From contig CM075994.1 in assembly GCA_038087875.1 (NCBI GenBank), positions 11,224,001-11,288,000 on the forward strand: a stretch of 64,000 bases of DNA, in the 5' to 3' direction. The notes beneath the pieces are model-generated. The model worked only from the letters and a program-made list of their open reading frames with translations. It was not told the DNA's origin and ran no database searches. The position numbers and the translations under genes were made by a program. The stretch comes from Malacoraja senta (lineage: Eukaryota). Each line of letters starts with the position of its first letter. Position 1 is the stretch's first letter. Shown piece by piece: positions 6,626 through 64,000 of this stretch.

Positions 6626-7021
6626 TCGGTTAACTTCCTGTTTGCACTGTATATTGATTTTGGATAAAACGCTACCACTTACGGCTGTGATTTTTGGCCA
6701 TCTTACTCAGTCCCCCTCCGCTCATCAGGTGCAGAGGATTCTTTCCATCAATTAAAAATAATAGTGTTATTAGTGTTTAAAAAATTGTTGAGAATCTCTC
6801 TCCTGTCAATCACGCCATGAAAGCCACGCTCCTTCTGGTGGGAGGGGAGAGGGATTATAAAACCCGGAAGTATGGGTGTGGCTCAGTCTCTGCAAGATGG
6901 GGAGGAGAGGTCACGACTCTGTCTGAGCTGTGAATCAACTGAACACACTGAATGTCCACTGAACTGTGAGTGTGGTGTTTATGTGGTGTTTAGTGTGGTT
7001 TTATGGTGGTTTTATGGTGGT

Positions 7022-7712
7022 TTCACCCTGCTTGAAATGGTATGAAACTGCATTTGAATGTGGTGGCCTTGCATCTTGCATGAAATGGTATGAAACTGCA
7101 TTTTAATTTGGTTGTCTTGCACCCTGCATGAAATGGTGTGAAACTGGACTTGAATTTGGTGGCCTTGCACCCTGATTGAAATGGTATGAAATTGCACTTC
7201 AATTTGGTTGTCTTGCACCCTGCTTGAAGTGGTATGAAATGCACTTGAATTTGGTGGCCTTCCACCCTGCTTGAAATGGCATTAAACAGCGCTAGCATTT
7301 GGTGGCCTTGCACCCTGCTTGAAGTGGCATGAAACTGCACTTGAGTTTGGTGGCCCTGCACCTCGCTTGAAGTGGTAGGAAACTGTACTTGAGTTTGGTG
7401 GCCCTGCACCCTGCTTGAAGTGGTATGAAACTACACTTGAATTCGGTGGACTTGCACCCTGCTTGAAGTGGTTGGAAACTGCGCTTGAATTCGGTGGCCT
7501 TGCACCTTGCTTGAAGTGGTAGGAAACTGCACTTGAATTCGTTGGCCTTGCATCCTGCTTGAAGTGGTAGGAAACTGCACCTGAATTTGGTGGCCTTGCA
7601 CCCTGCTTGAAGTGGTATGAAACTGCAATTGAATTTGGTGGCCTTGCACCCTGCTTGAAATGGTAGGAAACTGCATTTGAATTTGGTGGCCTTGCACCCT
7701 GCTTGAAATGGA
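7022..7712 (+). repeat. 48-bp tandem repeat, about 14 units
   Basis: Unit gcttgaagtggtaggaaactgcacttgaatttggtggccttgcaccct. Explains the 16-aa periodic ORFs in the track. Confidence 0.9.
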
Positions 7713-7811
7713 ATTTCAAGGAATAGCCGTGAGTTAACTGCTCGCCCACCAACCGTGAGTGAGTTGCCCTCCCGTGTGAACATGGGACCCAACGGGTCCC
7801 ACTTAGTCTAG

Positions 7812-8287
7812 TATTGTTATATATGTCCACTACGCATGAAAAAAGAGATACACTTTCCAGATGTTGGATGTGTACACGTGTGCCCATGCAATTAAGAGGA
7901 GATATTCCCCTTAAGATTATCGCTTTGAACGTTTCGGAAATGGTCGAGTGGTACATGCCCCAGAACCATTCCCACCTGCTTGTATGTCTACCATAAGGAA
8001 CGTTGCAAATACAAGCCCAAATACAACCGTTCCTACTGTTCCTCGTTCTAGGCCATTCTGGGCCCTTTAGTGAAAGAAGGCAAGAAGTGGAATTTGCCAT
8101 GTCAGGCAATATAGCGGGTCCCGAAAGTACGGAACGCTTTGTGCAGTCGAAATCTCAATGTCTTTGACAGTACACGTGTGGGCTTCAGTCACATTACGGC
8201 TCGAAACCGTTCAACTGGATACCCTTTTCAGGACAACTGTTTTCCCCTTTCGGTAGAATCCTTGAGTGCTTGCAATAGTACCTATTT
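7812..8287 (+). pseudogene. env: Endogenous retrovirus env, SU N-terminal and central part
   Basis: LLYMS..TLSR-CWMC-TRVPMQLRGDIPL..LNVSEMVEWY, with the CWxC motif at 7862-7873. Ends in ..LSACNSTYF. Contains stops and frameshifts. Confidence 0.8.
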
Positions 8288-9327
8288 TAGCAATGTTAAA
8301 AGATTTTGAGATTTTAAAAATAAAGTCTGCAATTTATCCCATCAGATAAAGCATAAAAAGAAGTTTAATTTGACACCTAATTCACTTTCATACCTTCAGT
8401 ATTAAAGAAGTTATGGCCATTTTCATACGCGGAAATTAGCATCTTGTTCCCTATTGCTTTTCCATTGACTTAACACAAAAGCTGTGATCGAGGACAGTCA
8501 AAAGCCCATAACTTTCTTAAAAATTAAGATAACTGAAAGACATTTTCAGTTATTATAGATTGAAGCATTCTGAAACAAATATGAAACAATTTTACTTAGA
8601 AGACATGAAAGTAAAGCATATAATTAGTTAGTTACCTAATTGTAGCTAATTACAAAATGCAATTACTAGATCTAAACATCTATCAATTTCTCAAGAATAG
8701 ATTAACATTTTTAAATAGCCTAAGTGTCCAAATAACATTCACACAATAATTCACAATATAACATAATTTTTAAATCTCATTTTCATGAATTTACAGGCCA
8801 AATGGAAGGAATTGAATGTTTAATACCTGTAAATTAATGGGCATTTAATTCATCTTGTGAGTGTGGATTTCTGGAACGCGATCTTTTGGAACGTTCATTT
8901 GCGGTGAATTTAACCCGTATTGGCATGAAAAATACTGCCGTTAATTCGGGGAATAAAATCACCGTGACGCATGAAAAAATGTGAATTAAAGGCTTCTTAA
9001 GAAGCACTTTTATACATTTAAAGAAACCACTTTCGTTTACCTGTCCCGTGTGTGAAATCCGTCCCCGTTATCGGCGTTGACGCTTCAGGAGCTGCTTTTA
9101 AAATTACTCCAGCGCTGACATTGACGATTTAATAAAAATAAAAAATACACAAATCGCCACTAGGAACGATTCTTCAGCCAGCGCTTGTACTCCAACAAAA
9201 TATTAACCAGGACAAGGGAGGAGAAACCCGCGTTTTAACCCCGCCCCCCCTTAAAGGCGCCAAAATCGCGCACACGGCCAGTGGCAGAATTACAGCGCGA
9301 CTGAAGGTAAGTTTTGTAACATACCTA
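8288..9327. mobile_element. About 1.04-kb non-autonomous TIR DNA transposon (hAT-like termini), copy 1
   Basis: Imperfect TIRs TAGCAATGTTAAAA / TTTTGTAACATACCTA. Flanking direct repeat cctattt (8281-8287 and 9328-9334). An inverted second copy lies at 27345-28386. Confidence 0.85.
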
Positions 9328-9334
9328 CCTATTT

Positions 9335-9696
9335 TGTCTACGTTCCCTGTTTGCCCCAGGATAGTTGAGGCTCCTATTGTTTCCCTCATTTTGTTTATAT
9401 TATTCGGCACTATAAGTCCTTATCCCAAATGTACTCTCAGTCAACATGGAAAGGTTCTTTGCTCTTGCATTTCCTTGCCAGGGCATGGTAAAGGGTGAGA
9501 GAGAGAGCATCAATATAGCCTCTGCGTGAGTAAAGGTTACTAATTTCACTGCCCTAGCCTTGGAAGAAATTACTGCGGAGGAGGTGGTCATCCGGACAAT
9601 TGCTCAGCAAAACAGAATGGATTTGTATATCCTCCCAGCAGAAAACGTGAGAACTGAATACGTGATGGAATCTGAATGGTGTAATTATATCCCAGA
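9335..9696 (+). pseudogene. env: Endogenous retrovirus env, SU C-terminus plus TM ectodomain
   Basis: PCLPQDS*GSY..IIRH; decayed furin site (YPKC); fusion peptide ERFFALAFPCQG; heptad LEEITAEEVVIRTIA; ISD QQNRMDLYILPAE; CX6CC remnant ..ESEWCNYIPD. Confidence 0.85.
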
Positions 9697-10069
9697 CTGG
9701 ACTAAGTAGGGACCCGTTGGGTCCCAGCATCACATGGGATGGCTGGTCACCCAACGCAATATTCCACCTCTCCACCAATTCCAATATTGCTGGCCAGTGG
9801 GGGGGAGGGGGGCTTTCTGTTGCGCTAGTATGGGTGTCGTGGGCCGAAGGTACTGGTGTCCAGAGGGCTAGTATGGACATTGTGGGCCGAATGGCCTCAT
9901 GGGCTGGCAGCTCAGTCGCTGAGGCCAGGCAGCTCAGTCACTGAGGCCTGGCAGTACACTCACTCAGACCTGGCAGGCTGGCAGCTGAGAAACTGTCAGA
10001 AATTCTGCCCAATACAGGTGACAGACTCTGTGAGAAAGAAGGGGGAGAGGGTGGACTGAATGTAATATT

Positions 10070-10475
10070 GGGCTGGCAGTTCAGTCACTTACGGCTGGTG
10101 GTCTGGCAGTTCACTTACTCACGGGTGATGGGCTGGCAGTGCACTCACTCACGGCCGATGGGCTGGCAGTGCAGTCACTCACGGCTGGTGGGCTGGCAGT
10201 GCAGGCACTCGCGGTTGGTGGGCTGGCAGTGCAGTCACTCACTGCTGCTGGGCTGGCAGTGTAGTAACTCACGGCTGGTGGGATGGCAGTGCAGGCACTC
10301 ACGGCTGGTGGGCTGGCAGTGCAGTCACTCACGGCTGGTGGGCTGGCAGTGCAGTCACTCACGGTTGGTGCGCTGGCAGTGCAGTCACTCACGGCTGGTG
10401 GGCTGGCAGTGCAGTCACTCACGGCTGGTGGGCTGGCAGTGCAGTCACTCACGCCTGGTACGCTGGCAGTTCACT
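10070..10475. repeat. 30-bp tandem repeat, about 13 units
   Basis: Unit ggctggtgggctggcagtgcagtcactcac. Confidence 0.9.
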
Positions 10476-10789
10476 CAGTCTCCCCTGCTCCCTTCACCCT
10501 CCCACTCTGCTCCTTGCCATTCCCTCCCCCCGCGCCACGCATTCAGTCCATCTCCCCACAACCTCCCCCCATGCACACCCACAGAGCATCCATTCCTGCC
10601 CATTAGGTTCCGATTGTGATGAAGAACACGCAGGCATGAAAAGTGGAAAAAAGATTTATTAAAGTTTAATATGTGAATGACTTTTAAAATATAAGAACAA
10701 TTTAAATGTTAAAGATGAGAATTATTAAGTTCTTTCTTGTAGTGTCTCTTGTTGCTGCTCACTGCGTCTTTATGTGTGTAGACACAACC

Positions 10790-10975
10790 AGACTCACACA
10801 GACACACACAGACACACACAGTCTGTGAATTGAATACGTGATAGGATTTGAATGGTGTAATTATATCCCAGACTAGACTAAGACACACACAGACACACAC
10901 AGACTTACACACACTCACACACACACACACAGACTCACACACACAGACTCACACACAAACACACACAGACTCACT

Positions 10976-11006
<31 letters not shown>

Positions 11007-11016
11007 GCGCACGCAC

Positions 11017-11058
<42 letters not shown>

Positions 11059-11510
11059 GCACACACACACACACAGACTCACACACACACAGCCTCACAC
11101 ACACACAGCCTCACATACACACACTCACACACACACACACGCACAGACTCACACACACACAAACAGACTCACTCACACACTCACACACACTCACACACAA
11201 CCAATACTAAAATGCCAAGGAACTTCAGAACGTGGCGAACATACAGTGTGTAAACCGAATGATTCAAACGTTTAAAGCCTCCTGGTGAGGCTGCTGCTGC
11301 TGAAGCAAAAACGTGCTTTAAATTACGTCCAACAAACACACTCAACATAGACAGAGCAATCAGATCTCTTGAATTATCAACGACGTCTTCACTATGCATT
11401 CTGCAGTCAGCACCATCTTGCCACGAAGAGACTTTACACGAACAGACACACACACACAGACTCACACAGACTCACACAGACTCACACAGACTCATACCGA
11501 CTCACACATA
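10790..11510. repeat. Compound (CA)n/(CACAGACT)n microsatellite with embedded non-repeat segments
   Basis: Directly visible; interrupted at 10826-10882 and 11208-11445. Confidence 0.9.
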
Positions 11511-11519
11511 CCTTCAGTG

Positions 11520-13762
11520 TTTAAGAAGGAACTGCAGATGCTGGAATATCGAAGGTAGACAAAAGTGCTGGAGAAACGCTGCGGGTGCAGCAGCATCTAT
11601 GGAGCGAAGGAAATAGGCAACGTTTCGGGCCGAATCCCTTCTTCAGACTGATGTAGGGTGGGAGGGGGGGGGGACGCGGAGAAGAAAGGAAAAAGGAAGA
11701 GGAGGAGCCCGAGGGTTGAAGGAGAGCTGAGAAGGGGAGGAGACGGCAAGGGCTACCGGAAATTGGAGAATTCAATGTTTATGCCGCTAGGGTGCAGACT
11801 GTCCAAGCGGAATATGTGGTGCTGCTCCTCCAATTAACGGTGGTATTCACTCTGGCCATGGAGGAGGCCCAGGACAGGGAGGTCGGAATCGGAATGGGAG
11901 GGGGAGTTAAAGTGCTGAGCCACCGGGAGATCAGGTTGGTTAATGCGGACCGTGCGGAGGTGTTCGGCGAAACGATCTTGGTCTCACCGATGTAGATTAG
12001 CTGACATCTAGAGCAGCGTATGCAATAGATGAGGTTGGAGGAGATGCAGGTGAACCTCTGTCGCACCTGGAACGACTGCTTGGGTCCTTGAATGGAGTCG
12101 AGGGGGGAGGTAAAGCGACAAGTGTAGCTTCTCTTGCGGTTGCAAGGGTAAGTGGACGGGGAAGGGGTGTTTCGGGAGGGAAGGGAAGAATTGACAAGGG
12201 AGTTACGGAGGGAGCGGTCTTACCGGAAAGCAGACAGGGGGGAGATGGGAAGATGTGGCAAGTGGTGGCGTCACGTTGGAGGTGGCGAAAATGACGGAGG
12301 ACTATTTGTTGTATGTGACGGCCCGTGGGGTGAAAGGTGAAGACTAGGGGGACTCTGCCTTTGTTACGAGTGGGGGGATGGGGAGCGAGAGCAGTGTTGC
12401 GGGGTATGGAAGAGACCCTGGTGAGAGCCTCATCTATAGTAGGGGAGGGGAACCCTCGTTCCCTGAAGAATGAGGACATTTCCGATGCCCTGGTGTGGAA
12501 CACATCATCCTGGGAACAGATGCGGCGTAGACGGAGGAATTGGGAGCAGGTGATGGAGTCCTTACAGGAAGCAGGATGGGAAGAAGAGTAGTCTAGATAG
12601 CCATGGGAGTCAGTGGGTTTATAGTGGATGTCGGTCAGAAGTCTATCACCTGTGATGGACATAGTTGGCTAAGAAATGGTAGGGAAGTGTCGGAAATTGT
12701 CCAGGTGAATTTGAGTGCCGGATGGAAGTTAGTGGTGAAGCGGATGAAGTCAGTCAGTTGTGTGTGGGTGCAGGAGGTGGCACCAAAGCAATCGTCGATG
12801 TAGCGGAGGTAGAGGTCGGGGATGGGGCCCTGGTACGCCTCGAAAAATGATTGTTCGACATACCCGACAAAGAGGCAGGCGTAGCTGGGGCCCATGCGCG
12901 TGCCCATAGCTACGCATTATATTTGGAGGAAATGGGAGGAGTCAAACGAGAAGTAATTGAGGGTAAGGACCAACTCCGTTAGGCGGAGGAGAGTATCAGT
13001 GGACGGGTATAGGTTGATTCTCCGATCGAGGAAGAACCGGAGGGCTTTGAGACCATCCTGGTGGGGGATGGAGGTGTAGAGTGACTGGACGTCCATGGTG
13101 AAGATGAGGGGATGGGGGCCTAGAGAATGGAATGCCCGGAGACGACGGAGAGTGTCTCAGGTGTCTTGAACATAGGTAGGGAGGGATTTAACTGGGGGGA
13201 TAGGATGCAGTCACGGTATGTGGAGATAAGTTCGGTAGGGCACGAACAGGCAGAGACAATGGGTCTACCAGGACAGTCAGGTTTGTGGATTTTGGGGAGA
13301 AGGTAATATCGGGCCTTGCGGGGCTGGGGAACGATGAGGTTGGGGGCTCAGGGGTGGGGGGGGGCAGGGAGCGGTTGTTGATGAAGTCGGTGATGATGCT
13401 AGAGATAGTGGCCCGGTGCTCGTCTGTGGGGTCATGGTCCAGGGGTAAGCAGGAGGAGGTGTCTGAGAGTTGGCGCGTGGCCTCAGCTTTGTAGAGATCG
13501 AGGCGCCAGACTACCACGGCACCTCCCTTGTCGGCGGGTTGGATAACCCAGTTTGGGTTGTTGTGGAGTGAGTCGATGGCTGTACGTTCAGGGGTAGAGA
13601 GATTGGAGTGAGACAGGGGAGTGGAGAAGTTGAGGCGGTTGATGTCCCGTCGGCAGTTTTGGATAAAAAGGTCTAAAGCCGGAAGGCCATGAGGGGGGGG
13701 GGTCCACGAGGATGTGGTTCGTTGGAGACGGGAAAAGGGATCATCACTAGGAGGCGAGGACT
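11520..13762 (-). mobile_element. Penelope-like retroelement, 5'-truncated (RT plus GIY-YIG endonuclease), frameshifted
   Basis: MGTRMGPSYACLFVG, YLRYIDD, TDIHYKPTDSHGYLDYSSSHP; GIY-YIG FTCISSNLIYCIRCSRCQLIYIGETK. Confidence 0.92.
11615..11652 (-). ncRNA. Minimal hammerhead ribozyme motif in the Penelope terminal repeat
   Basis: Minus strand reads cagt CTGAAGA agggattcggccc GAAA cgtt, i.e. CUGANGA - stem II - GAAA with a palindromic stem III. Confidence 0.65.
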
Positions 13763-13800
13763 AGGCCCCAAGGCCCCAAGCCAATTTGGCAAACACTATG

Positions 13801-16800
13801 TGTAGGTTGATGATGCATGTGAATCAATCACACTTAACCAGCATCACTAACTCCACCCCATTATAACATTTATACAAACGCCCATTCCCAGCACCGCTAG
13901 TTGAAGCAGCCAGGATGAACTGACAACACCTCGTTTTGCAATGCTGCCAAGTTAATGTGCTGATTAAAGATGTGTGTAAATCTAATATCGTTTGAAGAGA
14001 AATGGTCTTATCCACTCCTCTTGTATAACGGTTTTTTATTTTATCTTTTGTGAATTTTGCTTTACTTCACGATGGCTTCTTCTTGTCGGAAGCCTGAGCC
14101 TCTTGTCTTTGATGCCGATATCAGCAAACGCTGGGCCACGTTTGAAATTGATTACCAGCACTACATGAACATTGTACACCGACATGAACCAGATGCTGTC
14201 AAGGCCTCTCTCCTGCTCAACCTTGCGGGACCTGGTGCCCTTCGTCGATCCAGAACATTCCGTTATGCTCCGGCTATTCGTGATGCCAATGACCAGCTAA
14301 TTACACCGGCGGAGTCTCCTACTGACCCTAATGTTTTGCTGCGTAAACTGGCTCAGATCTATCACCTGCCCTCAAATCACATTTTGGACAGGGCAAGGTT
14401 TTTCTCTCGTCGTCAACTTCCCGGGGAAAGAGTTGACTCATTTATTTCTTCTTTGATGTATCTAGCCCAACGTAGACGATTTCACGAAATGCCGTTGGAT
14501 CAGTTGACTGATCAGTTAACGAGGGATATTTTAGTGAATGGTATCACCGATCAAAAGCTCAGATGAGAGCTCCTGAGACGGCCAGAGTTATCGCTAGAGG
14601 ATGCACGCACAACTGCTGAACTTGTTGATCCTATAGACATTTCGCATGAAAGCAATACCATCAATCTGACGGGCCTCACTAGGCAGCGGACATACACAGA
14701 TAACAGCCGATCTAAGACCCAAGCTAGCCAGGCAGCTCTCAGCGTTCCTCCACAGAAATGTCCTAACTGCGGCTATCTACACAACAGGCAATCCACCTGC
14801 CCCGCCCTCGGGAAGGCTTGTAATTACTGCAAAAAGCTAAATCACTTTGCCTCAGCCTGTCGGGCTGCTATCAGGGCCCGAGGAAAGAATGCGCCCAGTC
14901 TCAAGCCTAATCTCAATTTTTTGCAACGAGACAGCAACATACTGACTCCCCACTTCCAGCTCGAAGCCGCCCCCGAATATATTCCATTTGACTCGCAAGA
15001 CGACCCTACTGTTTACATGTTACAGCATGCTGCTGCCAAGAACTCTGATCCTATAGTGACGATATCTGTAAACAATGTTGCTTTTGGCGCGAAACTGGAC
15101 ACGGGGGCGAAAGTCAACACAATGTCAATCAACCTTTTTAACAAGATCAGGGCTAACGAGCCACTTGTCAAGGACGCGTCCACTTTACATGCTTTTGGTG
15201 GGGAGGTGCTAGTTCCTCTGGGCAAAACCAACTTGAAATGTGTACTGAAGAAAACAACTAGGGAATTGACTTTCCATGTGTTGAACTTTAATTCAGTTAC
15301 TCTGCTTGGCAATCGTGCCTGTCAGGAACTGGGGCTGATTTCCTTTGATAAAACTGTTCACAAACTGCAAGTTTCTTTTGATCCACTGAATGACGTCCCT
15401 GGTATCTTCGACAACAACCTAGGCAAGTTGCCTGTGTCCTACAAGATTATTACTGACCCCGATGTGACACCCGTAGTCCGAAACCCGCACAGATTGTTGT
15501 TTACCATGACTGACAGGGTTCACTCTATGCTGAAGGACATGGTCTCCAAAGGCGTAATTGAAGGAGTCAGCGACCCCACCGACTGGGTCTCAACCATGAT
15601 TGCCACAGTCAAGAAGGGAAAGGATGAATTCCGCCTGTGCATTAATCCAAAAGACCTGAACACTGCCATTAAGCACCCACACCGTCCCATGAAGACAGTA
15701 GAGGATGTTGCAGCAAAGATCGGAACGGCCACCCTATTTTCCGTCCTAGATGCAAAGAACTCATTCCGGCAGATACCGCTGGACAAGAGGTCATCAAACC
15801 TCACCACATTTGCCACCCCATTCGGCAGATATAAGTTTCTGAGAATGCCATTCGGGATCAACTCCGCCAGTGAAGTCTTCCAAAGAACTATGGAGCAATT
15901 ATTCGAGGGTCTGCCTTGTGCCATTATTGTCGACGATATCCTCGTCTATGGGAAAGACGCAGCGGAACACGACCACAATCTCAGGCTCATCTTGGAGCGT
16001 GCTGTCAAGATCAACCTCAAGCTCAATCCTGACAAGTGCAAGTTCAGGGTTCCAGTGGTCTCCTATGTCGGCCACATCTTCACCCCTGACGGCCTCAAAC
16101 CGGATCCGAAGAAGACTTCTGCCATCACAGAAATGCCTGCACCCACTAACGTGAAAGTGCTGCAACGTTTTCTGGGCATGGTAAACTATCTCGGAAAGTT
16201 CATACCAAACCTCAGCGAATTAAGCTCCACACTGCGGCAGCTGACAAAAAAGGACACTGCATGGTCATGGTTCCAGCAACATCAGGATGCCTTCGATGTT
16301 CTGAAATCAAAACTGACCAGTGCACCGACCCTGACTTTTTTCGACCTGAAACGTCCGGTGGTGATCACCTGCGATGCCTCGAAATTCGGGCTCGGCGCAG
16401 CCTGCCTGCAACCGTCTGATGATGGCACTACCTGTCGCGTATGCCTCTCGCACCATGACCGACACGGAGCAGCACTACGCGCAAATCGAAAAGGAACTGC
16501 TGGCGGTCGTCTTTGCCTGCTCCAAATTCCACGACTTCGTCTATGGCAACACGTTCATGGTTGAGACGGACCACCAGCCACTGGTGACAATCTTGAACAA
16601 GCCTATCCACGCCGCCCCAGCTCGTTTGGAGCGCATGATAATGCAGCTGCAGCGGTACGACTTCTCTATTACCTACACAAAGGGCAAGGACATGCATGTT
16701 GCTGACACACTCTCTCGTGCCCCTCGAACATCTTGCGAACAACACCCACACGAACGGGAGAATTTCACGGTTCTCGGTGTCGGTCTAGTCTCCAGAAACA

Positions 16801-18452
16801 ACTGCGCACTCTGGCCGCGCACGCTGCTAATGATGATACGCTTCAAGCCCTCTCGTCCATCATCAAAACAGGCTGGCGAGACAATCAATCCAACACGCCC
16901 ACAGAGGTGCAGCCATACTTCTTGGTCCGCGATGAACTGGTGGTTCAGGATGGTGTGGTCGTCAAGGGCCACAAGGTAGTTGTACCTGCATCGCTACAAG
17001 ACGAATACTTCAAAGAGGTACACAGCGGTCACCCAGCAGCGGACTCCACACTGGCACGCGCCCGGGATCTACTGGCCCGGAATGGCCACGTACATCCGCG
17101 ACCGCGTAGCCTCCTGCCCCACTTGCAACAATCTTGCACCTCATCAGCAGCGGCAACCCCTTCTGCAACAACCTCCATCAGCACTGTCTTGGTCGTCGCT
17201 GGCTGCGGACATTTTCGAATGGTGCGGTAAGCACTACCTCGTTCTTGTCGACTCGTTTTCTAACTGGTTTGAACTTGACCAACTGACCTCCCTCACGTCG
17301 GAGGTCAGTTGGTCAAGAAGCTGAAAAGACAATTCTCAGCCCATGGCGCTCCTGTCATCCTGAGAACCGACAATGGTCCACAGTTCACCAGCCACTTGTT
17401 CAAGCTTTTCGCCGACCGATGGAACTTCCAGCACGTCACAAGCAGTCCCGAGTATCCACAGAGTAATGGACTCGCTGAACGCGCTGTCAGAAGCGCCAAG
17501 CACTTGCTGGAGGGAGCGTGCATTTCAAAGTCAGACGTCTATCTCGATCTCCTGAATCTCGGAAACATCGCAAGAGACGGAACCTTGGGGTCACCAGCAC
17601 AGCGGCTGCTGTCGAGGGTGACAAGGTCTCCGGTCCCCATCGCACAACAGCGGCTGGTTCCTCGGGTGTTGAAGCCCGCCACTAGCCAGCAACGTCTCCA
17701 AGAGAAGCACGACATCCAGAAACGGTCATACGACAGTTCCAGCAGACCACTCCAGCCTCTACTGCCGGGCCAGGTCGTCCGTCTACGAAATCCAACTGGA
17801 CATTCTCGTCTAGGCGTTGTTGTGCGCCCGACTGATGAGCCGCGATCGTACCTTGTGGACTGTGAGGGAGCGGTTTACCGGAGAAATCGACAGCACCTGC
17901 TTGCTGTGAAGGAGCCCCGACCACCGCCTGCTGATCCCTATGCTCCGCCGCTCCAGTTCCAGCCGCCTTCCGCAATGTCTCCCGCCCGTCTCTGCATGCC
18001 TGGCACCCCCCAACGTCCATCTGTCTCCACTAACCACGGGGTTTCACCCACCGCATGTTTCCCCCCTCGGTCACCACAATCCTCTCCCGCGCGATTTTCA
18101 CCTTCAGCCTCTCCGCCTAATCCTTCAGTTGAGGGAGGGGATGGTTGGGTCCGCACGCGTTCGGGCCGTGTTAGTAGACCACCAGACAGGTATGGCGAGT
18201 ATGTTTAATATGCTTCCTCTCCACATTTAATCTTTAGGGGGAAGGATGTAGATTGATGATGCATGTGAATCAATCACACTTAGCCAGCATCACTAACTCC
18301 ACCCCATTATAACATTTATACTAACGCCCATTCCCAGCACCGCTAGTTGAAGCAGCCAGGATGAACTGACAACACCTCGTTTTGTAATGCTGCCAAGTTA
18401 ATGTGCTGATTAAAGATGTGTGTAAATCTTATATGGTTTGAAGAGATTTACA
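13801..18452 (+). mobile_element. Full-length Ty3/Gypsy (Mag-like) LTR retrotransposon, defective
   Basis: LTRs at 13801-~14002 and 18247-18452 (TG..CA; 6 mismatches in about 200 bp). PPT tagggggaagga. TSD ctatg/ctttg. Domain order gag-PR-RT-RH-INT. Confidence 0.95.
14072..18208 (+). pseudogene. Gypsy gag-pol with a stop at 14564 and several frameshifts
   Basis: Zinc knuckles CPNCGYLH..C / CNYCKKLNHFASAC; PR LDTGA; RT IVDD; RNase H CDAS, ETDHQPL; INT TDNGPQF, YPQSNGLAER; C-terminal RTRSGRVSRPP. Confidence 0.92.
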
Positions 18453-18705
18453 CTTTGCAAACAACCCACACATTTTCTGAAGAGTCTTTAAAAGCCAAGC
18501 CAATTTGGCAAACACTTTGCAAACAACCAACACATTTTCTGAAGTCTTTAAAAGCCAAGCCAATTCGGCAAACACTTTGCAAACAACCAACACATTTCCT
18601 GAAGAGTCTTTAAAAGCCAAGCCAATTTGGCAAACACTTTGCAAACAACCAACACATTTTCTGAAAAGTCTTTAAAAGTCAAGACAATTTGGCATACACT
18701 TTACA
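18453..18705. repeat. About 62-bp tandem repeat inside Helitron C, interrupted by the Gypsy element
   Basis: Unit gaagagtctttaaaagccaagccaatttggcaaacactttgcaaacaaccaacacattttct. A partial unit remains at 13775-13800. Confidence 0.85.
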
Positions 18706-19065
18706 ACCACATCGAGGGGACTCACCGTGGAGTAGACGTGCGTTCAGTTATTCGCAGCTCAGAGAGCCGCGACCCTCTCGCTTCCTCCGTCTCGCAGAGA
18801 CTGAGTGTGGAACGACACTTCCGGGTTTTATAGTCCCTCCCCCCTGCCGCCAGCGGGGGCCGCAGAAAGAATGGCGATATTTTTTAAAACATTAATAAGT
18901 CTCTATTTTTCATCGATGGGAAAAATTCTCCAGTCCAATTGGGCGGAGGGGGAGTCTGAGCGTGGTGGCCAAAAATAACGGCCGTAAATGGCGGCGTTCT
19001 CTCGGAAATCGCGAAACAGAGAGGCGAAAGTGGTCAAGATCTTAGTTTTAGTAATATAGATGTAA

Positions 19066-19722
19066 CAATACAATTGAATCAGTTTTATTCGCCACTTGCA
19101 CATAAAGTGCAAGTGAAATGAATTTGCCAACAACGGTACGATGAAAAAAGAACACATAAAAACACAATAAAATTTTAACATAAACATCCACCACATCCAT
19201 CCATAACATAAACATTCATCACTGTGGTGGAAGGCACAACATTGTCCAGTCCTCCTCCATTTCCCCCGTGGTCGGGACCTCAACCCTCCACAGTCGCCGC
19301 TGCGGGCGTCCAGATGTGTAGACAATGTAATGTCCAGGTAAGTCCTAAATCGGTGCTTCCCTAACGGAGACCGCGGCCTCAGGTTGGTGTAGGCCGCAGG
19401 CCGGCGGTCGAAGATCAAAAGTCCCCGCCGCACCGCAGCCGGAAGCACCGCAGACCGCAGGGTCCGCGGTCGGAGCTCCGCTCCAGGGGTCCCCGGCGAG
19501 GGACCCCGCTCCTGATGGTAAGTCCACGCCGCGCCCGCGGCAGAAGTTGGCCGCGGGCCGGCGGTCGGAGCTCCTCTCCTCCCGGGTCCCCAACAAGGGA
19601 TCCCAGGCCCAGGACGCCGCGCCGGCTGGAGCTCTGCAGACCGCGGCTTCAGGCTGCCGCGGGCCAGCGATCCGAGCGCTTCTCTCCGGCGACCCCCGGC
19701 GAGAGCTCGCAGCTCCGCGACG
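19066..19722 (-). mobile_element. GC-rich non-coding retroposon with stem-loop, AATAAA and (TATTG)n tail
   Basis: Hairpin cacttgcac..gtgcaagtg near the tail. Body homologous to 59690-59960 (opposite strand) and 61783-62440. Confidence 0.65.
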
Positions 19723-19745
19723 AATGCGTCCTCGCTTTAAAAGTG

Positions 19746-20000
19746 AACATTATCAATCTGGCTGACCGAATTCGTCAAGAGGCAGCCAAGATGCATGAAA
19801 CAAGATGATAATAGGAGGAGTACGTTGTCTCTGCGGGGATGTCGAAAGGGATGGTTGGGATTGATAGGGATCTGTTTGATGCAAGGTTTAATTTTTCTCG
19901 TTACCATCAGCCGAGTGTTGTTTGTTTATTATGCGCTTCTGAAATGTCGCTGTGTGAGGAAGATGGAGCGAAGTATCCCTTTTTTTTCTAAGTCACGTTC
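19746..20000 (+). pseudogene. env: Endogenous retrovirus env, C-heptad, transmembrane anchor and tail (3' boundary approximate)
   Basis: NIINLADRIRQEAAKMH, then after a frameshift GWLGLIGICLMQGLIFLVTISRVLFVYYALLKCRC. Confidence 0.75.
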
Positions 20001-21579
20001 CCTGAGCATCAAGATGGTTTCGGGACGTATATTTAGAGGTTTTTCTATTTTCTTGACTTCAAAAGATACGGGCAGAGGAAGATCGTTGAATTTTAACTGT
20101 GTTCGGGAGGCAATTGATGTCGGGAACAGGATTTCCGGTACAGGTAATTGAGAGATTGGAATTATTATGTGTCATGGGGGCCATGGGCACATACAACACA
20201 GAAGCACGTCAGTCGACCCATCCTGAGCGCACCGACCATCGGTGATGGCAACACTGCGAAGAACGCGATGCCCAGATGCTTCTCATCATAGACAGAGTTC
20301 CAAGTTATTTCGGTAAAATTAGCAGATTATGCGTAAAGGTAACGCACAATTGTTGCTTCTGTGAAGGACCAGGTACTTGTACTTGTTCACTTAATCCAGT
20401 TTGATCTCTGCCATAACTGATCCTGATGGTTGCATTACTTCACATTAACAGATAAGGCTATTTTATTCCACTCATTGCCATCACGTTTCAACTCTACTAC
20501 AGAGACAAATATCCCTTCTCTTTTTCCGCAGTTCTGGGGAACTGGGCCAAGGGTATCGGACACGAAATATTAGCTACTTCTATTCCACCATTTTCTGTAA
20601 CTATTTCAGATTTCCAATTAACACGTTGTTATTGTTTAGATTGTGTTGCTCTGCATCTGGAGGCGTGTAGGTTTGCCCTGGTCCTAATAGTTTCCTGAGC
20701 CGAACTCACCATTGTACATCTCAACAGATGCAGAATATAGGATTTCAATACGAATACATTGCACATATTCACAACTACAATAACACTGGTACAATATTCC
20801 AAGCATCTCTATCAGTCTGTTATTTACCAATGTAGCACAGTTTCAACATATCTGAATCATTATAGATTTCAGGTGTATGTTTAAACCTCCGTATCTCAAT
20901 TAGCAAAAACGAATGAAGAGCAACAGTTGTTCAACTAAACAAGGGAATAACAGTTCACAAGAAATTAGTGAATGTCTTAGCCAAGAATGCTTTGTGGAAA
21001 AATAACTAAAACATAATGTATTGCTTCTCGTTTTAAGTTTATTGCAAAATGTGTTAACGACAGTTATCCATAAGAATAACGACAAAATATTACATTAAAA
21101 AGAAACCACTCATAATTCCTTTCTTTATGCAATGCTCATAGCAGCATTAAGGTTTCCATGAGATATTATTAGACTTCAGTAGGTGACTGGGGTGTTTGCT
21201 AAATTTAAGCAGAAAATAGATTCTGTCCGACTGAAGGATCCGCACAGGATCCCGCTTAAGAAAATATTTGCCGTTCTAGATTCAAATCCTTGACCTTCCT
21301 GTTAGCCTGCCTATTAAAAGACATTATGGATATATTTGGAATTTGGATATAAATGTTTACATCTCTCCCGAAATGTGAAGTGCAACGATATTCGCACAGA
21401 GTCGGCGATCCAATTTGTTTGGTTTATTAAAATACGGATTGTAATTCAGAAAACGCCTCTTACGCGGGTAGAACAAGGACGACGGAGATAATCTTCTTAA
21501 AAAGTAATTAAAAAGTAAAAGTAATTTGACCGAGCAACTAATGGATAATTAGAAAAACGCTGAAGGACGCAGACATATT

Positions 21580-21660
21580 GACATTTCGGGTCGGGATCAT
21601 TCTTCAAACTATCTGAAGAAGAGTCTCCACCCGAAACGTCAACTCCATCCCCAGATGCTG
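21580..21660. mobile_element. Head-to-head pair of Penelope terminal-repeat fragments with hammerhead cores
   Basis: Plus strand CTGAAGA(21613)..GAAAcgtc(21640); mirrored degenerate copy at 21580-21610. Confidence 0.55.
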
Positions 21661-21832
21661 GTTGATCCGAAATTGGTCGGATATCAGAAATCAGTTAGAT
21701 ATAACATTATTACTTCAAAAAGAACAACATTCTCTGTAGGAACAACTACATTTTTGAAAATAATTGAATGGTTTTAAGAAATAGATACATCGGAATTTCG
21801 CAATCTCATATCCCGTCTCACCATTTACATAT

Positions 21833-21985
21833 AGCTCTTAGGGCTAACTGAATCAAGGGATATGGAGCGGAAAGCAGGAACGGGGTACTGATTCTGGATG
21901 ATCAGCCATATTCGTATTGAATGGCGGTGTTGGCTCAAAGGGCTTAATGGCCTACTCCTGTATATATTGTCTTTGTTTCTATGCT
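21833..21985 (+). mobile_element. CR1 3' UTR fragment
   Basis: Matches 1225-1383; tail tttctatg. Confidence 0.75.
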
Positions 21986-22629
21986 TAGACTGATTTCACT
22001 TGATCTGCACTCGTGCAATCTCAGTCCGGATGAAGGATCTCGATCCGTCAATCTCCAATCTCAATCTTAATCTCCTGTGTCTGTGTTTTCTGAAACATTT
22101 GTCCTCGTTATTGAACAACAAAAATAGACAGTAAACCATAATCCGCCTACTGCGCTGTTACTTTCGAATTTATCGTATTGCGTGCGTGCGGAGTACTACC
22201 GGCAATGACAATTGTTGCAAGCAAAATAAATAATTCAGATAACGTGAAAATTAAATCTTACTGTGCCGTTGCTGGGAATTACAGTTAGGCTGCCCTTCAG
22301 AAACGAAAATAATCACGTTCCATATAAAAGTGGAAAGAGAATCCCTGCCAGGATTTTTATTTGAGTATCCTTCACAGTCATCATGGATACGTGATATTGT
22401 GTGGCAATTTTTTGGCGACAATGCAGGTGATTGTTGTGATACAAATTAATGAATCGACATTAAGGCCATGAATGCCGAGAGATATCATTAGCTGAGGAAG
22501 CATGGTAATCTTATAGATGTTTCTGGGGAAGTGTGTATCACGATATTCCTCATCAGTAATGTCACCCGAAATATAGACGAGAAACTTGACTATTCAATCC
22601 CTATAAGACTGCAGACTGATTAACAGTTT

Positions 22630-25483
22630 TCTGGTTTAAAAGCATTATATATGAATACGCGATGTATAAGAAATAAAGTGGATGAACGAGGCTCAGTTAG
22701 AGATTGGTATATATGACATTGTGGGGAATACAGATACATGGCTGCAGGAGGATTAGGGTTGTTAACTGAATATTCAGGGTTATACGTCCTTCAGAAAGGA
22801 CAGGCGGGTGGGCAGAGGAGGTGGGGTAGCTCTGTTGGTGAGTGATGAAATGTAGACCCTTGCGAGGGACGACATAGGGACTGGAAATGAGGAATTGTAA
22901 AGGTAAGAAGACACTAATGGGAGATATCTACAGCCCCCCACGCAGTAGCCGGGATATAGGGTGCAAGTTGCAGCAGGAGTTAGAAATGTCATGTAACAAA
23001 GGTAATGCCACTTTGGTTATGGGAGATTTCAATATGCAGACTGGGAATATCAGGTTGAGTCTGCGCCCCAAGAAAGGGAGTTCGTAGAGTGCCTCCGAGA
23101 TGGATTCTTAAAGCAGCTTGTATTGGAGCCTATCTGAGAGAAGGCAATTCTGGATTTAGTGTTGTCTAATGAACCAGATTTAATAAGGGAACTCAAGGTA
23201 AAGGAATCGCTCGCGGGTAGTGACCCTAATATGATAAGTTGTATCTGCAATTCGAGAGGGAAAAGGGTAAATCAGAATTGTCAGTGTTGTATTTGAACAA
23301 ATGGGACTATGAAGGCATGAGAGAGGAGCTGACCAAGGTCGGCTTGAAAAGGATCCTAGCAGGAATGACGATGGAACAGCATTGGCAGGTATTTCTAGGC
23401 ATAATCCAGAAGATGCAGGATCATTTCATTCCAAAGAGGATGAAAGATTCTAATGGGGAGTAAGAGGCAACCGTGGCAGACAAGGGAAGTTAGGGACGGT
23501 AGAACACTCAAAGAAAAGTTGTATTATATCGCAAAGAGTAGAGGAAAGCCAGAGGATTTGGAAACTTTCAAAGGATATCAGAAGGTAACTAAAAGGGCAA
23601 TACGGGGTGAAAAGATGAAGTACGAAGTTAAGCTTGCCAATAATATAAAGAAGGATAGTAAAAAGCTTATTTAGGTGTGTTAAGCGAAAAAGATTAGTAC
23701 AGACACATGTGGGTCCCTTTGAAGACAGAAACAGGTGAAATTATTATGGGGAACAAGGAAATGACAGAAGAGTTGAACAGGGACTTTGGTTCTGTCTTCA
23801 ATAAGGAAGACACCAACAATCTCCCAGATGTACTAGATGACAGAGGATCTAGGAAGACAGAGGAACATAAATACATTTGCATTAGACGAGAAATAATATT
23901 GGGTAGACTGATGAGACTGAAGGCTGTAAAATGCCCAGGGCCTGATGGTCTGGGTATCCCAGGGTACTCAAGTAGGTGGCTCCAGAAATCGTTGACGCAT
24001 TGGTGATCGTTTCCCCATTTTCTTTTGACTCAGGAACTGTTCCTGCGGATGGAGGGTAGCTACAATTATCACAATTTTCAAGAAAGGAGCGAGAGAGAAA
24101 ATGGGGCATTATAGACCAGTTAGCATGACATCGGTGGTTGGGGGGCGGTGCTGGAGTCAATTATTAAAGAAGTAATAACGGCGCATTAGGATGATAGTTA
24201 TAGGATTGGTCGAAGGCAGCGTGGATATATGAAGGGGAAATCCTGCTTGACTAATCTTCCGGAGTTTTTTGAAGATGTGACAAGTAAAATGGATGAAGGA
24301 GAGCCAGTGGATGCAGTGTATCTGGACTTTCAAAACGCCTTTGATAAGGTCCTACACAGGAGAATAGTGGGCAAAATTGGAGCACAATGTATTGAGGGTA
24401 GGGTAAGCCATGGATTGAGAATTGGTTGGCAGGCAGGAAACAAAGTGTAGGAGTTAACGGGTCCCTGTCAGAATGGCAGACAGTGCGACAGGAGTGCCGC
24501 AAGGCTCGGTGCTGGGGCCACAGCTATTTACAATGTACATTAATGAATTGGATTATGGAATTAAAAGTAACATCAGCAAATTTGCTGATGACACAAAGCT
24601 GGGTGGCAGTGTGAACTGCGAAGAGGATGCTAGGAAGTTGCAGGGTGATCTGGACAGGTTGAGTGAGAGGGCAGATGCATGGCAGATGCAGTATAATGTA
24701 GATACATGTGAGGTTATCCACTTTGGAGGCAAGAACAAAGAGGCAGATTATTATATCAATGGTGTCAGATTAGGAAAAAGGGAAGTGCAAAGAGACCTGG
24801 GTTTCCTTGTACACCAGTCATTGGAAGTATACGTGCATTTACCGCAGGCTGCGAAGAAAGCGAATGGCATGTTGGCCGTCATAATGAGAGGATTTGAGTA
24901 TAGGTCCTTCTGCAGTTTTACAGGGCCCTACTGAAACCACATCTGGAGTATTGTGTGCAGATTTGGTCTCCTAATTTGAGGAAGGACATCCTTGCTATTG
25001 AGGGAGTGCAGCGTAGGTTCACAAGGTTATTCCCGGGGGTGGCGGGACTGTCATAAGAGGAAAGATTGGAAAGATGTATTGACTGGAATTTAGAAGGATG
25101 AGGGGTGATCTTGTAGAAACATATACAATTATAAAAGGACTGGACGAGCTAGATGCATGAAAAATGTTCCCAATGTTGGGGAAGTCCAGAACCAGGGCCC
25201 ACAGTCTAAGAATAAAGGTGATGCCATTTTAAACTGAGATGTGAAAAAGGTTTTGCATCCAGAAAGTTGTGAAATTCTCTGCCACGGAAGGCAGTGGAGG
25301 CCAATTCACTGGATGAATTTAAAAGAGAATATGATAGAGCTCGTGGGGCTAGCGGAATCAAGGAGTACTGGGAGAAGGCAGTCATCTGATTGTGGATGAT
25401 CAGCCATGATCACAATCAATGGCGGTGCTGTATCGAACGTCCGAATGGCCTCCTCCTACACCTATTTCTATGTTGCTATGTCT
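22630..25483 (+). mobile_element. CR1 LINE ORF2 (EN plus RT), 5'-truncated, decayed
   Basis: MGDFN, KGKSCLTNL, YLDFQNAFDKV, GVPQGSVLGP, KFADDTKL; CR1 tail. Confidence 0.92.
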
Positions 25484-25774
25484 TCACCATAGTCCTGAAA
25501 AGTTCACTGACAAATTCAGCCACCTGGAAAACCCAGGCGTTACACCACTCCGCAGTCTACTGATAACAAACTGAACATTTAAGAATCAATTCTGGTATGA
25601 ATATCGGGTGGAAGTTTCTTTCGTCTAATCCCGCTGCACAAACTGGAGGGCTACGCCGGCTGCATTTACTGAGAAGCTACATCATAACATTCGCTTTTGG
25701 TCCGTATGATAAAAGCTTGTAAACGTAAACGTACAGCTGTTTGAAATTCGGAAGTTGCTTAAAACATACTGAAG

Positions 25775-25868
25775 ACAGACACTAAATGCTGGAGTAACTC
25801 TGCGGGACAGGTAGCATCTCTGGAGAGAAGGAATGGGTGACGTTTCGGGTGGAGACCCTTCTTCAAAC
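25775..25868 (-). mobile_element. Solo Penelope terminal-repeat fragment with a mutated hammerhead core
   Basis: Minus strand reads tTGAAGA agggtctccaccc GAAA cgtc acc. Related pieces at 36519-36592 and 48213-48367. Confidence 0.65.
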
Positions 25869-38720: not shown

Positions 38721-38856
38721 CTGTGTAATATAGTTTGCTATTCCAAAGTGTTATAGGCAAGAAAAACTCGTACACGCATGACAAATTGAAGCAAATGAAT
38801 ATATATTTCGCGGGTTATTGCTCGTTCGTAATTCAATTTTCTTCTTTTGGTTGCAG

Positions 38857-39803
38857 CAAATTTGGTGGCAATCCTTATCCTGTCGTCTGGAAAGTGCGGC
38901 CTCACTGGATGTGTCATCCAGTATCTGAAATCAATGGCGGTAGCTGATCTAATGGTACTGGTTTCCAATGTAATACTCTATGAGATTAAAGAGGCATATT
39001 TTCCGCATTCATTCCTCAATTACACGCCCATTTGCCGTTTTGTTATTACACTGAGTTATATTTCGCTCGATTGTTCCGTCTGGCTGACTGTCACTTTTAC
39101 ATTCGATCGATTTGTTGCTATATGTTGCCAGTCGTTGCGTTCAAAATATTGTACCATGCAGACGGCATTGAAAGTAATAACAGCGGTGTTTATGTTGAGT
39201 ATTTTAGAAAATATTCCACTCTACTTTATATTTGAACCACGCAAAGTAATTAATGATGTACCATGGTCCTGTTATGTAAAATCAAGTTTCTACACATTAC
39301 CCACCTGGGTCGTGTATTTATGGTTTGCAACACTCTTAACCCCATTTGCGCCATTTGTGTTGATTCTTCTGCTTAATACCTTGACCATAAAGCATATTAT
39401 CATGGCCAACAGAGTCAGGAGCAAGCTCCGAGGGAGTAATAGAGAGGCGTGTCAGACTGATCAAGAGACTGAGAACAGAAGGAAATCGATCATTTTACTC
39501 GTTGCAATATCTGGCAACTTTATTTTCTTATGGATGGTAAACCTTGTGTTCTTCATCTGTGTACAGTTTACAGATTTTCAATTTATGGAAACAGATTACA
39601 TCGACTCGTTCACCATTGTGGAAAGAAGTGGCTTTATGCTGAGGTGTATGAGTACTTGCACAAACACTTTCATTTATGCAGTTTCTCAGAGACACTTCAG
39701 AGAGGAACTGAAGAATGTAATTTCACGTCCCTTCCTTGCCATTGCTAATATATTCAAACGTTTGAACACAAAACTAACTTTATCCAAATATGTAATCAAG
39801 TGA
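38857..39803 (+). CDS. GPR139/GPR142-like class A GPCR, coding exon 2 (spliced protein 338 aa, intact)
   Basis: Acceptor ttttcttcttttggttgcag| with matching phase (G+CA=Ala). Motifs NLVAILIL, MAVADL, DCSVWLTVTFTFDRFVAIC, ENRRKSIILL, STCTNTFIY; seven hydrophobic segments. Confidence 0.92.
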
Positions 39804-45600: not shown

Positions 45601-46142
45601 AAATTTCAAAGGAAAGATGGAATGAATACTTATTACACGTGCATAAATGCTCGATTAATGTAAGACACACTTTAATACAATTTAAAATTTTACATAGATT
45701 ATATAATTCGAAAACTAAAGTTCATAAAATTTTCCCAAATGTATCATCTATTTGTGATAAATGTCAATCCCAAGAAGCTACCATAACGCACTCATTCGTT
45801 TCTTGTACAAAAATTCAAAAATTTTGGAATGACATTTTTGAAATCTTTACAATGTTATTTAAAACAAGACTGATACCCAAAGCAGAATGGATTATCTTCG
45901 GTATACCGGAAGATGGTGCAGAACTAAATGTGTTTCAAAAGAAACTAATGGACTATGGGTTAATAACTGGAAAAAAGCTAATTCTAAAATTTTGGAAGAA
46001 GGCTCCAATACCAACTATAAATATGTGGATTTCAAATATGTTTGAAACATTACACCTAGAAGAGATAAGACTCCTCCTAGAAGGTAAACCAGATCACTTC
46101 CACCTGACGTGGTCTGCATTTATAGAATTATTACAAACATAG
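42636..46142 (+). pseudogene. L1 ORF2p (APE, RT, Cys-rich region) with an in-frame internal deletion and a stop at 45492-45494
   Basis: SWNIRG, LQETH, GGDFN, SRIDY, SDH; SLDAEKAFD, RQGCSLSP, YADD; CDKC..HSFVSC. Confidence 0.92.
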
Positions 46143-61534: not shown

Positions 61535-64000
61535 CTTCCGGGTTTTATAGTCCCTCCCCCCTGCCGCCAGCGGGGGCCGCAGAAAGAATGGCGATATTTT
61601 TTAAAACATTAATAAGTCTCTATTTTTCATCGATGGGAAAAATCCTCCAGTCCAATCGGGCGGAGGGGGACTCTGAGCGTGGTGGCCAAAAATAACGGCC
61701 GTAAATGGCGGCGTTCTCTCGGAAATCGCGAAACAGAGAGACGAAAGTGGTCAAGACCTTAGTTTTAGTAATATAGATGTAACAATACAATACAATCAGT
61801 TTTATTCGCCACTTGCACATAAAGTGCAAGTGAAATGAATTTGCCAACAGCGGTACGATGAAAAAAGAACACATAAAAACACAATAAAATGTTAACATAA
61901 ACATCCACCACATCCATCCATAACATAAACATTCATCACTGTGGTGGAAGGCACAAAATTGTCCAGTCCTCCTCCATTTCCCCCGTGGTCGGGACCTCAA
62001 CCCTCCACAGTCGCCGCTGCGGGCGTCCATATGTGTAGACAATGTAATGTTCAGGTAAGTCCTAAATCGGTGCTTCGCTAACGGAGACCGCGGCCTCAGG
62101 TTGGTGTAGGCCGCAGGCCGGCGGTCGAAGATCAAAAGTCCACGCCGCACCGCATGAGGAAGCACCGCAGACCGCATGGCCCGCGGTCGGAGCTCCGCTC
62201 CAGGGGTCCCCGGCGAGGGACCCCGCTCCTGATGGTAAGTCCACGCCGCGCCCGCGGTAGAAGTTGGCCGCGGGCCGGCGGTCGGAGCTCCTCTCCTCCC
62301 GGGTCCCCAACAAGGGATCCCAGGCCCAGGACGCCGCGCCGGCTGGAGCTCTGCAAACCGCGGCTTCAGGCTGCCGCGGGCCAGCGATCGGAGCGCTTCT
62401 CTCCTGCGACCCCCGGCGAGAGCTCGCAGCTCCGCGACGAATTATCAATCTGGCTGACCGAATTCGTCAAGAGGCAGCCAAGATGCATGAAACAAGATGA
62501 TAATAGGAGGAGTACGTTGTCTCTGCGGGGATGTCGAAAGGGATGGTTGGGATTGATAGGGATCTGTTTGATGCAAGGTTTAATTTTTCTCGTTACCATC
62601 AGCCGAGTGTTGTTTGTTTATTATGCGCTTCTGAAATGTCGCTGTGTGAGGAAGATGGAGCGAAGTAACCCTTTTTTTTCTAAGTCACGTTCCCTGAACA
62701 TCAAGATGGTTTCGGGACATGTATATTTAGAGGTTTTTCTATTTTCTTGACTTCAAAAGATACTGGCAGTGGAAGATCGTTGAATTTTAACTGTGTTCGG
62801 GAGGCAATTGATGTCGGGAACAGGATTTCCCGTAAAGGTAATTGAGAGATTGGAATTATTATGTGTCATGGGGCCATGGGCACATACAACACAGAAGCAC
62901 GTCAGTCGACCCATCCTGAGCGCACCGACCATCGGTGATGGCAACACTGCGAAGAACGCGATGCCCAGATGCTTCTCATCATAGACAGAGTTCCAAGTTA
63001 TTTCGGTAAAATTAGCAGATTATGCGTAAAGGTAACGCACAATTGTTGCTTCTGTGAAGGACCAGGTACTTGTACTTGTTCACTTAATCCAGTTTGATCT
63101 CTGCCATAACTGATCCTGATGGTTGCATTAATTCACATTAACAGATAAGGCTATTTTATTACACTCATTGCCATCACGTTTCAACTCTACTACAGAGACA
63201 AATATCCCTTCTTTTTTTCCGCAGTTCTGGGGAACTGGGCCAAGGGTATCGGACACGAAATATTAGCTACTTCTATTGCACCATTTTCTGTCACTATTTC
63301 AGATTTCCAATTAACACGTTGTTATTGTTTAGATTGTGTTGCTCTGCATCGGGAGGCGTGTAGGTTTGCCCTGGTCCTAATAGTTTCCTGAGCCGAACTC
63401 ACCATTGTACATCTCAACAGATGCAGAATTTAGGATTTCAATACGAATACATTGCACATATTCACAACTACAATAACACTGGTACAATATTCCAAGCATC
63501 TCAATCAGTCTGTTATTTACCAACATAGCACAGTTTCAACATATCTGAATCATTATAGATTTCAGGTGTATGTTTAAACCTCCGTATCTCAATTAGCAAA
63601 AACGAATGAAGAGCAACAGTTGTTCAACTAAAGAAGTGAATAAGAGTTCACAAGAAATTAGTGAATGTCTTCGCCAAGAATGCTTTGTGGGAAAATAACT
63701 AAAACATAATGTATTGCTTCTCGTTTTAAGTTGATTGCAAAATGTGTTAACGACAGTTATCCATAAGAATAACGACAAAATATTACATTAAAAAGAAACC
63801 ACTCATAATTCCTTTATTTTGCAATGCTCATAGCAGCATTAAGGTTTCCATGAGATATTATTAGACTTCAGTAGGTGACTGGGGTGTTTGCTAAATTTAA
63901 GCAGAAAATAGATTTTGTCCGACTGAAGGATCCGCACAGGATCCCGCTTAAAAAAATATTTGCCGTTCTAGATTCAAATCCTTGACCTTCCTGTTAGCCT
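61535..64000 (+). repeat. Segmental duplication, copy 2 (runs off the window); includes the Helitron 5' end, the GC-rich retroposon and the env tail
   Basis: Near-identical to 18818-21308, apart from a deletion of about 26 bp at 62440. Confidence 0.95.
62441..62700 (+). pseudogene. env: Duplicated env C-heptad and transmembrane fragment
   Basis: IINLADRIRQEAAKMH and GWLGLIGICLMQGLIFLVTISRVLFVYYALLKC, the same as at 19749-19950. Confidence 0.7.

Follow-up and report, generated by a model that had tools for sequence, protein, structure and literature searches.

Gamma-type retroviral envelope (Env) proteins, which carry a CXXC motif in the surface subunit (SU) and an immunosuppressive domain (ISD) plus CX6CC in the transmembrane subunit (TM), are common in endogenous retroviruses (ERVs) of fish (PMC9967133). 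ERVs with gamma-type Env have been published before from cartilaginous fish: Chen et al. (bioRxiv 10.1101/2021.11.23.469661) report them in 6 cartilaginous fish, 3 of which have >500 copies. Old pol-env proviruses (CmiERVs) in the elephant shark are described by Han 2015 (PMC4422223). Named shark proteins include those of Heterodontus francisci (P0001) and Heptranchias perlo (P0002), both called 'ERV group PABLB member 1 Env-like' by NCBI, and Scyliorhinus torazame (P0003), called 'syncytin-A-like'. Here, we analyzed a 64,000-nucleotide stretch of Malacoraja senta DNA (contig CM075994.1, positions 11,224,001 to 11,288,000; referred to as the window), in which three islands on the + strand between 7812 and 20151 are, judging from sequence, very probably remnants of one gamma-type env broken by stops, frame changes, and mobile DNA, and likely functionless today.

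Like P0001, P0002, and P0003, the window sequence has CWxC in the first part of SU, a fusion peptide near the start of TM, an ISD followed by the CX6CC position, a C-heptad, and an anchor, and its TM stretch (83 amino acids) was 52, 47, and 43% identical to the three proteins, respectively. On the other hand, these proteins are open frames with a furin site and whole CX6CC, whereas the window copy is split, truncated, and stop-ridden. It could not be matched to any of the nine types of Chen et al., the supplements of which may list this lineage; CmiERVs are classified by Pol, and the window's provirus has no surviving reverse transcriptase (RT) to compare. The shark-related passages of PMC10435555 added nothing on this lineage, and only general surveys were found as published accounts bearing on this locus, which closed papers or supplements might describe.

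Island 1 (7812..8287, + strand) encodes part of SU with stops and frame changes. It contains CWMC (7862-7873, located by a motif check on the sequence), which lines up with CWVC of P0002 and P0021 and corresponds to the CXXC of SU; its identity to P0021 was 46% over 52 amino acids. Island 2 (9335..9696, + strand) contains the end of SU, the fusion peptide (ERFFALAFP, beginning at 9449), the N-heptad, and decayed ISD and CX6CC, and matched Heterodontus Env at 52% over 83 amino acids (tblastn, E 4.6e-16). The heptad and ISD stretch named in the earlier note on this DNA, IRTIAQQNRMDLYIL, was confirmed in the window sequence; within the decayed ISD, QQNRMDLYIL, directly before the CX6CC position, pairs without gaps with LQNRMALDYLL of P0002. 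The island has an in-frame TGA at 9527-9529 and terminates with ESEWCNYIPD at 9696; the furin-site stretch is gone, and only the third cysteine of CX6CC remains. Island 3 (19739..20151, + strand) consists of the C-heptad (NIINLADRIRQE, from 19746), three stops at 19806-19814, the hydrophobic anchor (19843-19953) in a frame different from that of the C-heptad, and decayed 3' sequence, in which no long terminal repeat (LTR) was recognised; it was 87 and 84% identical to paralog L031/L032 and 70% to L027. All of the motifs named in the earlier note were thus present where it had placed them, and its account of the loss of the furin site and two of the three cysteines also held. Its count of three pieces stood for the islands, but not for the remnant as a whole: approximately 6 env-like bases survive at 19061-19066 between two inserts (see below), giving four pieces and three insertion sites. 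The first ~128 residues of the 531-residue Heptranchias Env have no counterpart in the window.

A hidden Markov model (HMM) built from an alignment of 20 fish Env proteins was run on the six-frame translated window. Five matches were obtained, all following the profile order along the window: 7811-7975 (profile 20-74, E 2.2e-9), 7995-8288 (profile 91-187, E 0.097, weak), 9443-9700 (profile 234-319, E 6.1e-19), 19746-19811 (profile 322-343, E 0.51, weak), and 19771-19977 (profile 329-393, E 0.0034). The noise level was given by two minus-strand places, 22969-23046 and 37052-37267 (E 0.2-0.75), and the reversed window, used as a control, had no fish-Env HMM match at E<1. In Pfam, the three islands, being short and decayed, gave no family at E<=0.1 in any of nine frames, and none of the window's own pieces reached the TLV_coat cut-off. 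Taken at face value, the lack of a Pfam match amounts to the refutation specified in the earlier note, but the Env profile match that it anticipated for 9440-9696 was present with the fish-Env HMM. When island 2 was used in a word-based search of proteins, no match was obtained among 16 candidates. The identification of env rests, at the level of sequence, on the lineage-specific profile plus paralogs.

These paralogs were found by a DNA search of the own genome (1.94 Gb) with 9349-9695, in which 40 of 72 candidates were scored. At least 43 matches to island 2 were detected: 31 at 92-100%, 2 at 85%, 5 at 68-74%, and 5 short ones. The 68-74% loci were better preserved than the window copy. L023 has a 165-residue open stretch that matched TLV_coat (24.3 bits; cut-off 22.5), with an integrase core upstream (E 4.6e-13), and L029 reached 29.1 bits against the same cut-off; both keep the whole CX6CC, and the ancestor therefore had this motif. 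The top protein matches of the L023 stretch were shark Env (Heterodontus 61%, Heptranchias 58%, and Scyliorhinus 53%), and 1042 representatives were found at E<=0.001. Among solved structures, its TM ectodomain matched filovirus GP2 (E 1.6e-13) and syncytin-1 (E 1e-8), and also syncytin-2 and the TM of avian sarcoma and leukosis virus (ASLV). Homology of gamma-type fusion subunits with filovirus GP2, syncytins, and ASLV TM is known (PMC9967133); this likeness is confined to the heptad-ISD-CX6CC core, and says nothing on filovirus origin or co-option. The assignment to gamma-type env made in the earlier note was supported.

In L031/L033, the three env parts lie side by side at 77, 85, and 87% identity, and these contiguous copies settle the colinearity of the islands, which the order of HMM matches had also suggested for the proposed envelope gene. 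The long gaps between pieces, an unrelated second ERV 4-6 kb upstream of the window, and the absence of Pfam matches could instead be taken to mean that the pieces came from two or more separate proviruses in chance order, or that the motifs arose by chance. Contiguous natural copies refute this: not only L031/L033, but also 18 of the 20 fetched duplicates of the locus (see below), in which islands 1 and 2 are contiguous, and the reversed control was empty. We consider such a chance arrangement to have practically no likelihood.

The reading of the islands as one env is also consistent with their relationships. Kimura two-parameter (K2P) distances from the TM stretch of the window amounted to 0.016-0.042 for four duplicates and 0.133 for L031. 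For four independent loci they were 0.31-0.37, whereas these loci are just 0.12-0.19 away from L023. In a TM tree of 34 stretches and 83 columns (L047 was dropped for its short length, and the midpoint root serves display alone), the window and L031 had a common branch of 0.76 with support of 100/100, within an own-genome clade (96/87); Heterodontus Env was sister to this clade (85/81), a position that was not firm. The TM stop occupies the same position in the window and L031, the furin region is shortened in both, and the sequences flanking them downstream are 74-85% alike, suggesting that they may go back to a single integration. A protein search of the own genome yielded at least 151 env matches (150 of 1229 candidates scored), and open frames of at least 379 residues were present in 41 of the 150 listed. 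Young ERV families (e.g. L060 and L062) with long open gag, pol, and env frames were also observed, with pol of 1335-1338 residues containing RT, RNase H, integrase, and MLVIN_C; these families served as references.

The mobile elements that cut the env were delimited as follows. At its 5' side, env is truncated at 7811 by the 3' end (hairpin, CTAG, then T) of a Helitron-like non-autonomous repeat (6630..7811, start approximate; + strand), which adjoins island 1. Islands 1 and 2 are separated by a non-autonomous DNA transposon (8288..9327, 1040 bp, no strand assigned) with imperfect terminal inverted repeats (TIR) and a 7-bp target duplication at 8281-8287 and 9328-9334. A second copy of this TIR element is located in the window at ~27330-28386 (K2P 0.079), and no Pfam match was found in its six frames. 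It was present in two of the 20 fetched loci (the window and its 99% twin) and absent from the other 18. Island 2 is followed by a Helitron-like non-autonomous element (9697..19060, - strand), which begins at its 5' end with TC after A at 19060 and ends at its 3' side in a hairpin and CCAG, replaced by CTAG in duplicates, ahead of T at 9696. The edges 8287/9335 and 9696 given in the earlier note were therefore exact to the base.

The element at 9697-19060 shows the hallmarks of a Helitron: TC at the 5' end, a hairpin with CTRR at the 3' end, a position between A and T, and no target duplication seen. Its 5' end was A followed by TC in all 15 copies fetched, which represent 12 different sites in addition to that of the window; the Helitron-like 3' ends were read at 9697, at 7811, and in duplicates only, and a pattern search found no Helitron 3' end in the short dispersed stretches. 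Since RepHel had no Pfam match in six frames of 9697-11500 and 18450-19063, the element is called non-autonomous and Helitron-like. Its junction with env was found in all 20 loci (19 by pattern, and L011 with one base changed). A 59-bp second copy of 9648-9706, comprising the end of island 2 and the end of the Helitron, occurs at 10824..10882 (+ strand, 90% identity) within a CA-rich microsatellite of the Helitron-like element. This copy was present in 18 of 20 duplicate loci and in none of 13 dispersed Helitron-like loci, and is likely a templated repair patch predating the multiplication of the block; capture and spread of the env piece by the Helitron was unsupported by these 13 loci, although some of these 4.5-kb stretches may not extend across that position.

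Two further elements are nested in the Helitron-like element. One is a decayed retroelement (11430..13700, ends approximate; - strand), which we take to be Penelope-like from RT and GIY-YIG-like motifs; its RVT_1 match (E 0.0035) was below the cut-off. It occurs in duplicates and is skipped by dispersed Helitron-like copies. The other is a Gypsy-type LTR retrotransposon (13801..18449, + strand) with protease, RT, RNase H, and integrase, the LTRs of which (13801-14000 and 18247-18446) are 97% alike, with gag-pol at 14054-18208 and no env match. A separate dispersed repeat of ~670 bp with an (ATTGT)n tail (19067..19738, ends approximate; - strand) follows, with an 88% copy at the unrelated site L107; no Pfam match was found, and it appears to be related to short or long interspersed elements (SINE- or LINE-like). 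The gap of ~10 kb between islands 2 and 3 thus contains four mobile elements, and the Helitron proposed in the earlier note to fill it starts at 9697 as claimed, but ends at 19060 rather than 19745.

In four loci of the env family, including the window, different elements (Helitron-like, CR1-like, and other LINE-like) interrupt the sequence at or close to one shared AT-rich stretch that immediately precedes the CWxC region (window 7812; L031:6321; L021:6424; L029:5110-6469). This stretch may be a hot spot for insertions.

The locus belongs to a set of at least 31 segmental duplicates and lies next to a GPR139-like receptor gene. The fetched duplicates align to the window over tens of kilobases at ~90-96%, flanking repeats included; the counts are lower bounds, and some duplicates may be assembly haplotypes. 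The window itself contains a duplicate of 18818-21308 at 61535..64000 (+ strand, 96.9%), with a second env island 3 at ~62440-62845. In four of 24 listed public runs, from four organisms, the contigs covered each of the 30 bins of one natural duplicate with a likeness of >=80%, with contig pieces of 350-460 bases at ~90-95%; the run contigs show presence only, and one of the four organisms may be the window's own species. No run recorded as RNA was among those listed, which has no bearing on whether the remnant is expressed. Since the remnant was found in the contigs of four organisms, it likely predates their split. An inverted twin of the window region (C18:11113000-11126400; L002, L068, and L080; ~99%) was also observed ~100 kb upstream, and either arose by very recent duplication or represents a haplotype of the assembly. 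On C2683 and C479 (L093 and L094), a tandem array has units of ~11.66 kb of window-like 18719-31746 sequence, which carry env island 3 and are near constant in size over many copies.

Stops and variants were analyzed in 20 of the at least 31 copies. A stop in the second SU stretch was found in all 20 and a stop in the TM frame in 19, and several copies contained frame-changing indels; the earlier note's verdict that the gene is dead was borne out in every copy examined. A single open frame running from a signal peptide through a furin site to the anchor was not found, the start and furin stretch being missing. Distinct variants were 102 non-synonymous and 25 synonymous, giving a ratio of non-synonymous to synonymous polymorphism (pN/pS) of 1.41 (p 0.13 vs neutrality), a value that counts variants among related duplicates rather than independent lineages and to which the second SU stretch may contribute partly out of frame; taken separately, the CWxC stretch and the TM stretch each gave 1.27. 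These counts showed no apparent purifying selection on the env copies.

Because gamma-type Env proteins are well known to have been co-opted (PMC9967133) and the remnant is kept at 31 places or more and in runs of four organisms, a co-opted env (syncytin- or restriction-factor-like), either with its inserts spliced as introns or with one duplicate still coding, was also considered. The stops in 20 of 20 copies, the pN/pS value, the missing gene start, and the loss of the furin site and two CX6CC cysteines all oppose it. Furthermore, none of the inserts starts with GT on the + strand, and their removal by splicing is therefore unlikely; the amplified unit includes tens of kilobases of flanking repeats, so that amplification was not env-specific. 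Co-option is accordingly regarded as highly improbable.

The two limits on pN/pS given above weigh against the interpretation of a single dead env, together with the following points: two of the five HMM matches were weak, Pfam recognised no family, and a search of the PDB with island 2 returned one unrelated match (E 1.6). The provirus's own pol or env start was found neither in the window nor 20 kb upstream nor in the upstream stretches of four duplicates, and the integrase of the paralogs had no informative match in the PDB. No LTR or RT by which to fix the class and age of the provirus was found.

Integrase remnants are present upstream of env in L031, L023, and L029. The RNase H/integrase of the paralogs was 28-35% identical to the MLVIN_C-bearing Pol of L060, while the Pol of the Gypsy element reached 23% only. 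A genome search with the L031 integrase remnant gave nine matches (9 of 9 candidates scored), none at places of window-type duplicates. Two candidates for the partner of env were rejected: the Gypsy gag-pol, because the Gypsy element is absent in four of four duplicates examined, which retain env, and an integrase 5 kb upstream of the window, which belongs to another ERV with its own env. The statement in the earlier note that no retroviral gag or pol was visible in the window was correct for the provirus itself, but overlooked the nested Gypsy gag-pol. The stretches examined for the window, L029, and L027 contained no LTR pair, and a search with 20100-20900 returned duplicates at 95-100% only (40 of 79 candidates scored) and could not reveal solo LTRs.

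The open GPR139-like receptor gene is located at 38832..39803 (+ strand; 7tm_1 E 7e-19). Its named matches among the best 120 were all from cartilaginous fish, in agreement with the host proposed in the earlier note. A receptor paralog lies near the older ERV duplicate, L031, with L064 matching the receptor gene at 75%. Duplication of the block may be linked to the expansion of the GPR139-like cluster. The dead env could have been kept or amplified as non-coding DNA, either as a source of antisense or small RNA against younger ERVs or as a regulatory piece in the receptor cluster: the block is multi-copy, and young targets exist in the 41 of 150 listed env relatives with long open frames. However, the young env proteins have only ~50% likeness to the nearer paralog, are not among the at least 43 DNA matches to island 2, and are too distant for RNA pairing, and many indels occur in the copies. 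A non-coding role of this kind appears very unlikely, and there is equally little reason to think that the block was amplified with the receptor cluster because it had been recruited as a small-RNA source or regulatory module. The GPR139-like receptor family is expanded in cartilaginous fish.

The preferred reading, of a decayed env with no present function, suggests the following history. A retrovirus, probably of class I, would have integrated close to a GPR139-like gene in the germ line of an ancestral cartilaginous fish, and the provirus would then have decayed. An old segmental duplication may have separated the L031/L033 paralog, with its integrase remnants kept, from the window's lineage, into which the Helitron-like elements and the SINE/LINE-like repeat were presumably inserted and in which gag, pol, and the start of env were presumably lost. 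The Penelope-like element would have entered the Helitron thereafter, before the block multiplied to at least 31 places, and the Gypsy and TIR elements would have entered the window's own copy as the last step. The locus is an ordinary proviral fossil of a kind already described, with a readable history of decay, and demonstrates neither a new virus type nor a co-opted gene. It provides a worked case of provirus decay in which the order of nested insertions is legible from presence and absence among segmental duplicates, and shows that such fossils are missed by Pfam and detected by a lineage-specific profile. Its presence in several organisms may make it useful as a dated marker, both of this ERV lineage and of how the GPR139-like cluster grew.

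Another decayed ERV, distinct from the first, was observed 4-6 kb upstream of the window start (L047:3600-6300, on C18). It has RNase H (E 6e-4) and integrase (E 2.4e-5), together with a gamma-type env containing CWAC, and a portion of its TM is found again in inverted orientation near 6974-7096. The WQIDYTGP motif of its integrase is presumably that of class III elements, and a class III-like pol combined with a gamma-type env would, if true, represent a recombinant form. Finally, the window contains a nearly intact L1-type LINE at 40669-46142, with an L1 RNA-binding domain (RBD)-like match in ORF1, endonuclease, RT, and a zinc finger in ORF2, and one stop in each.

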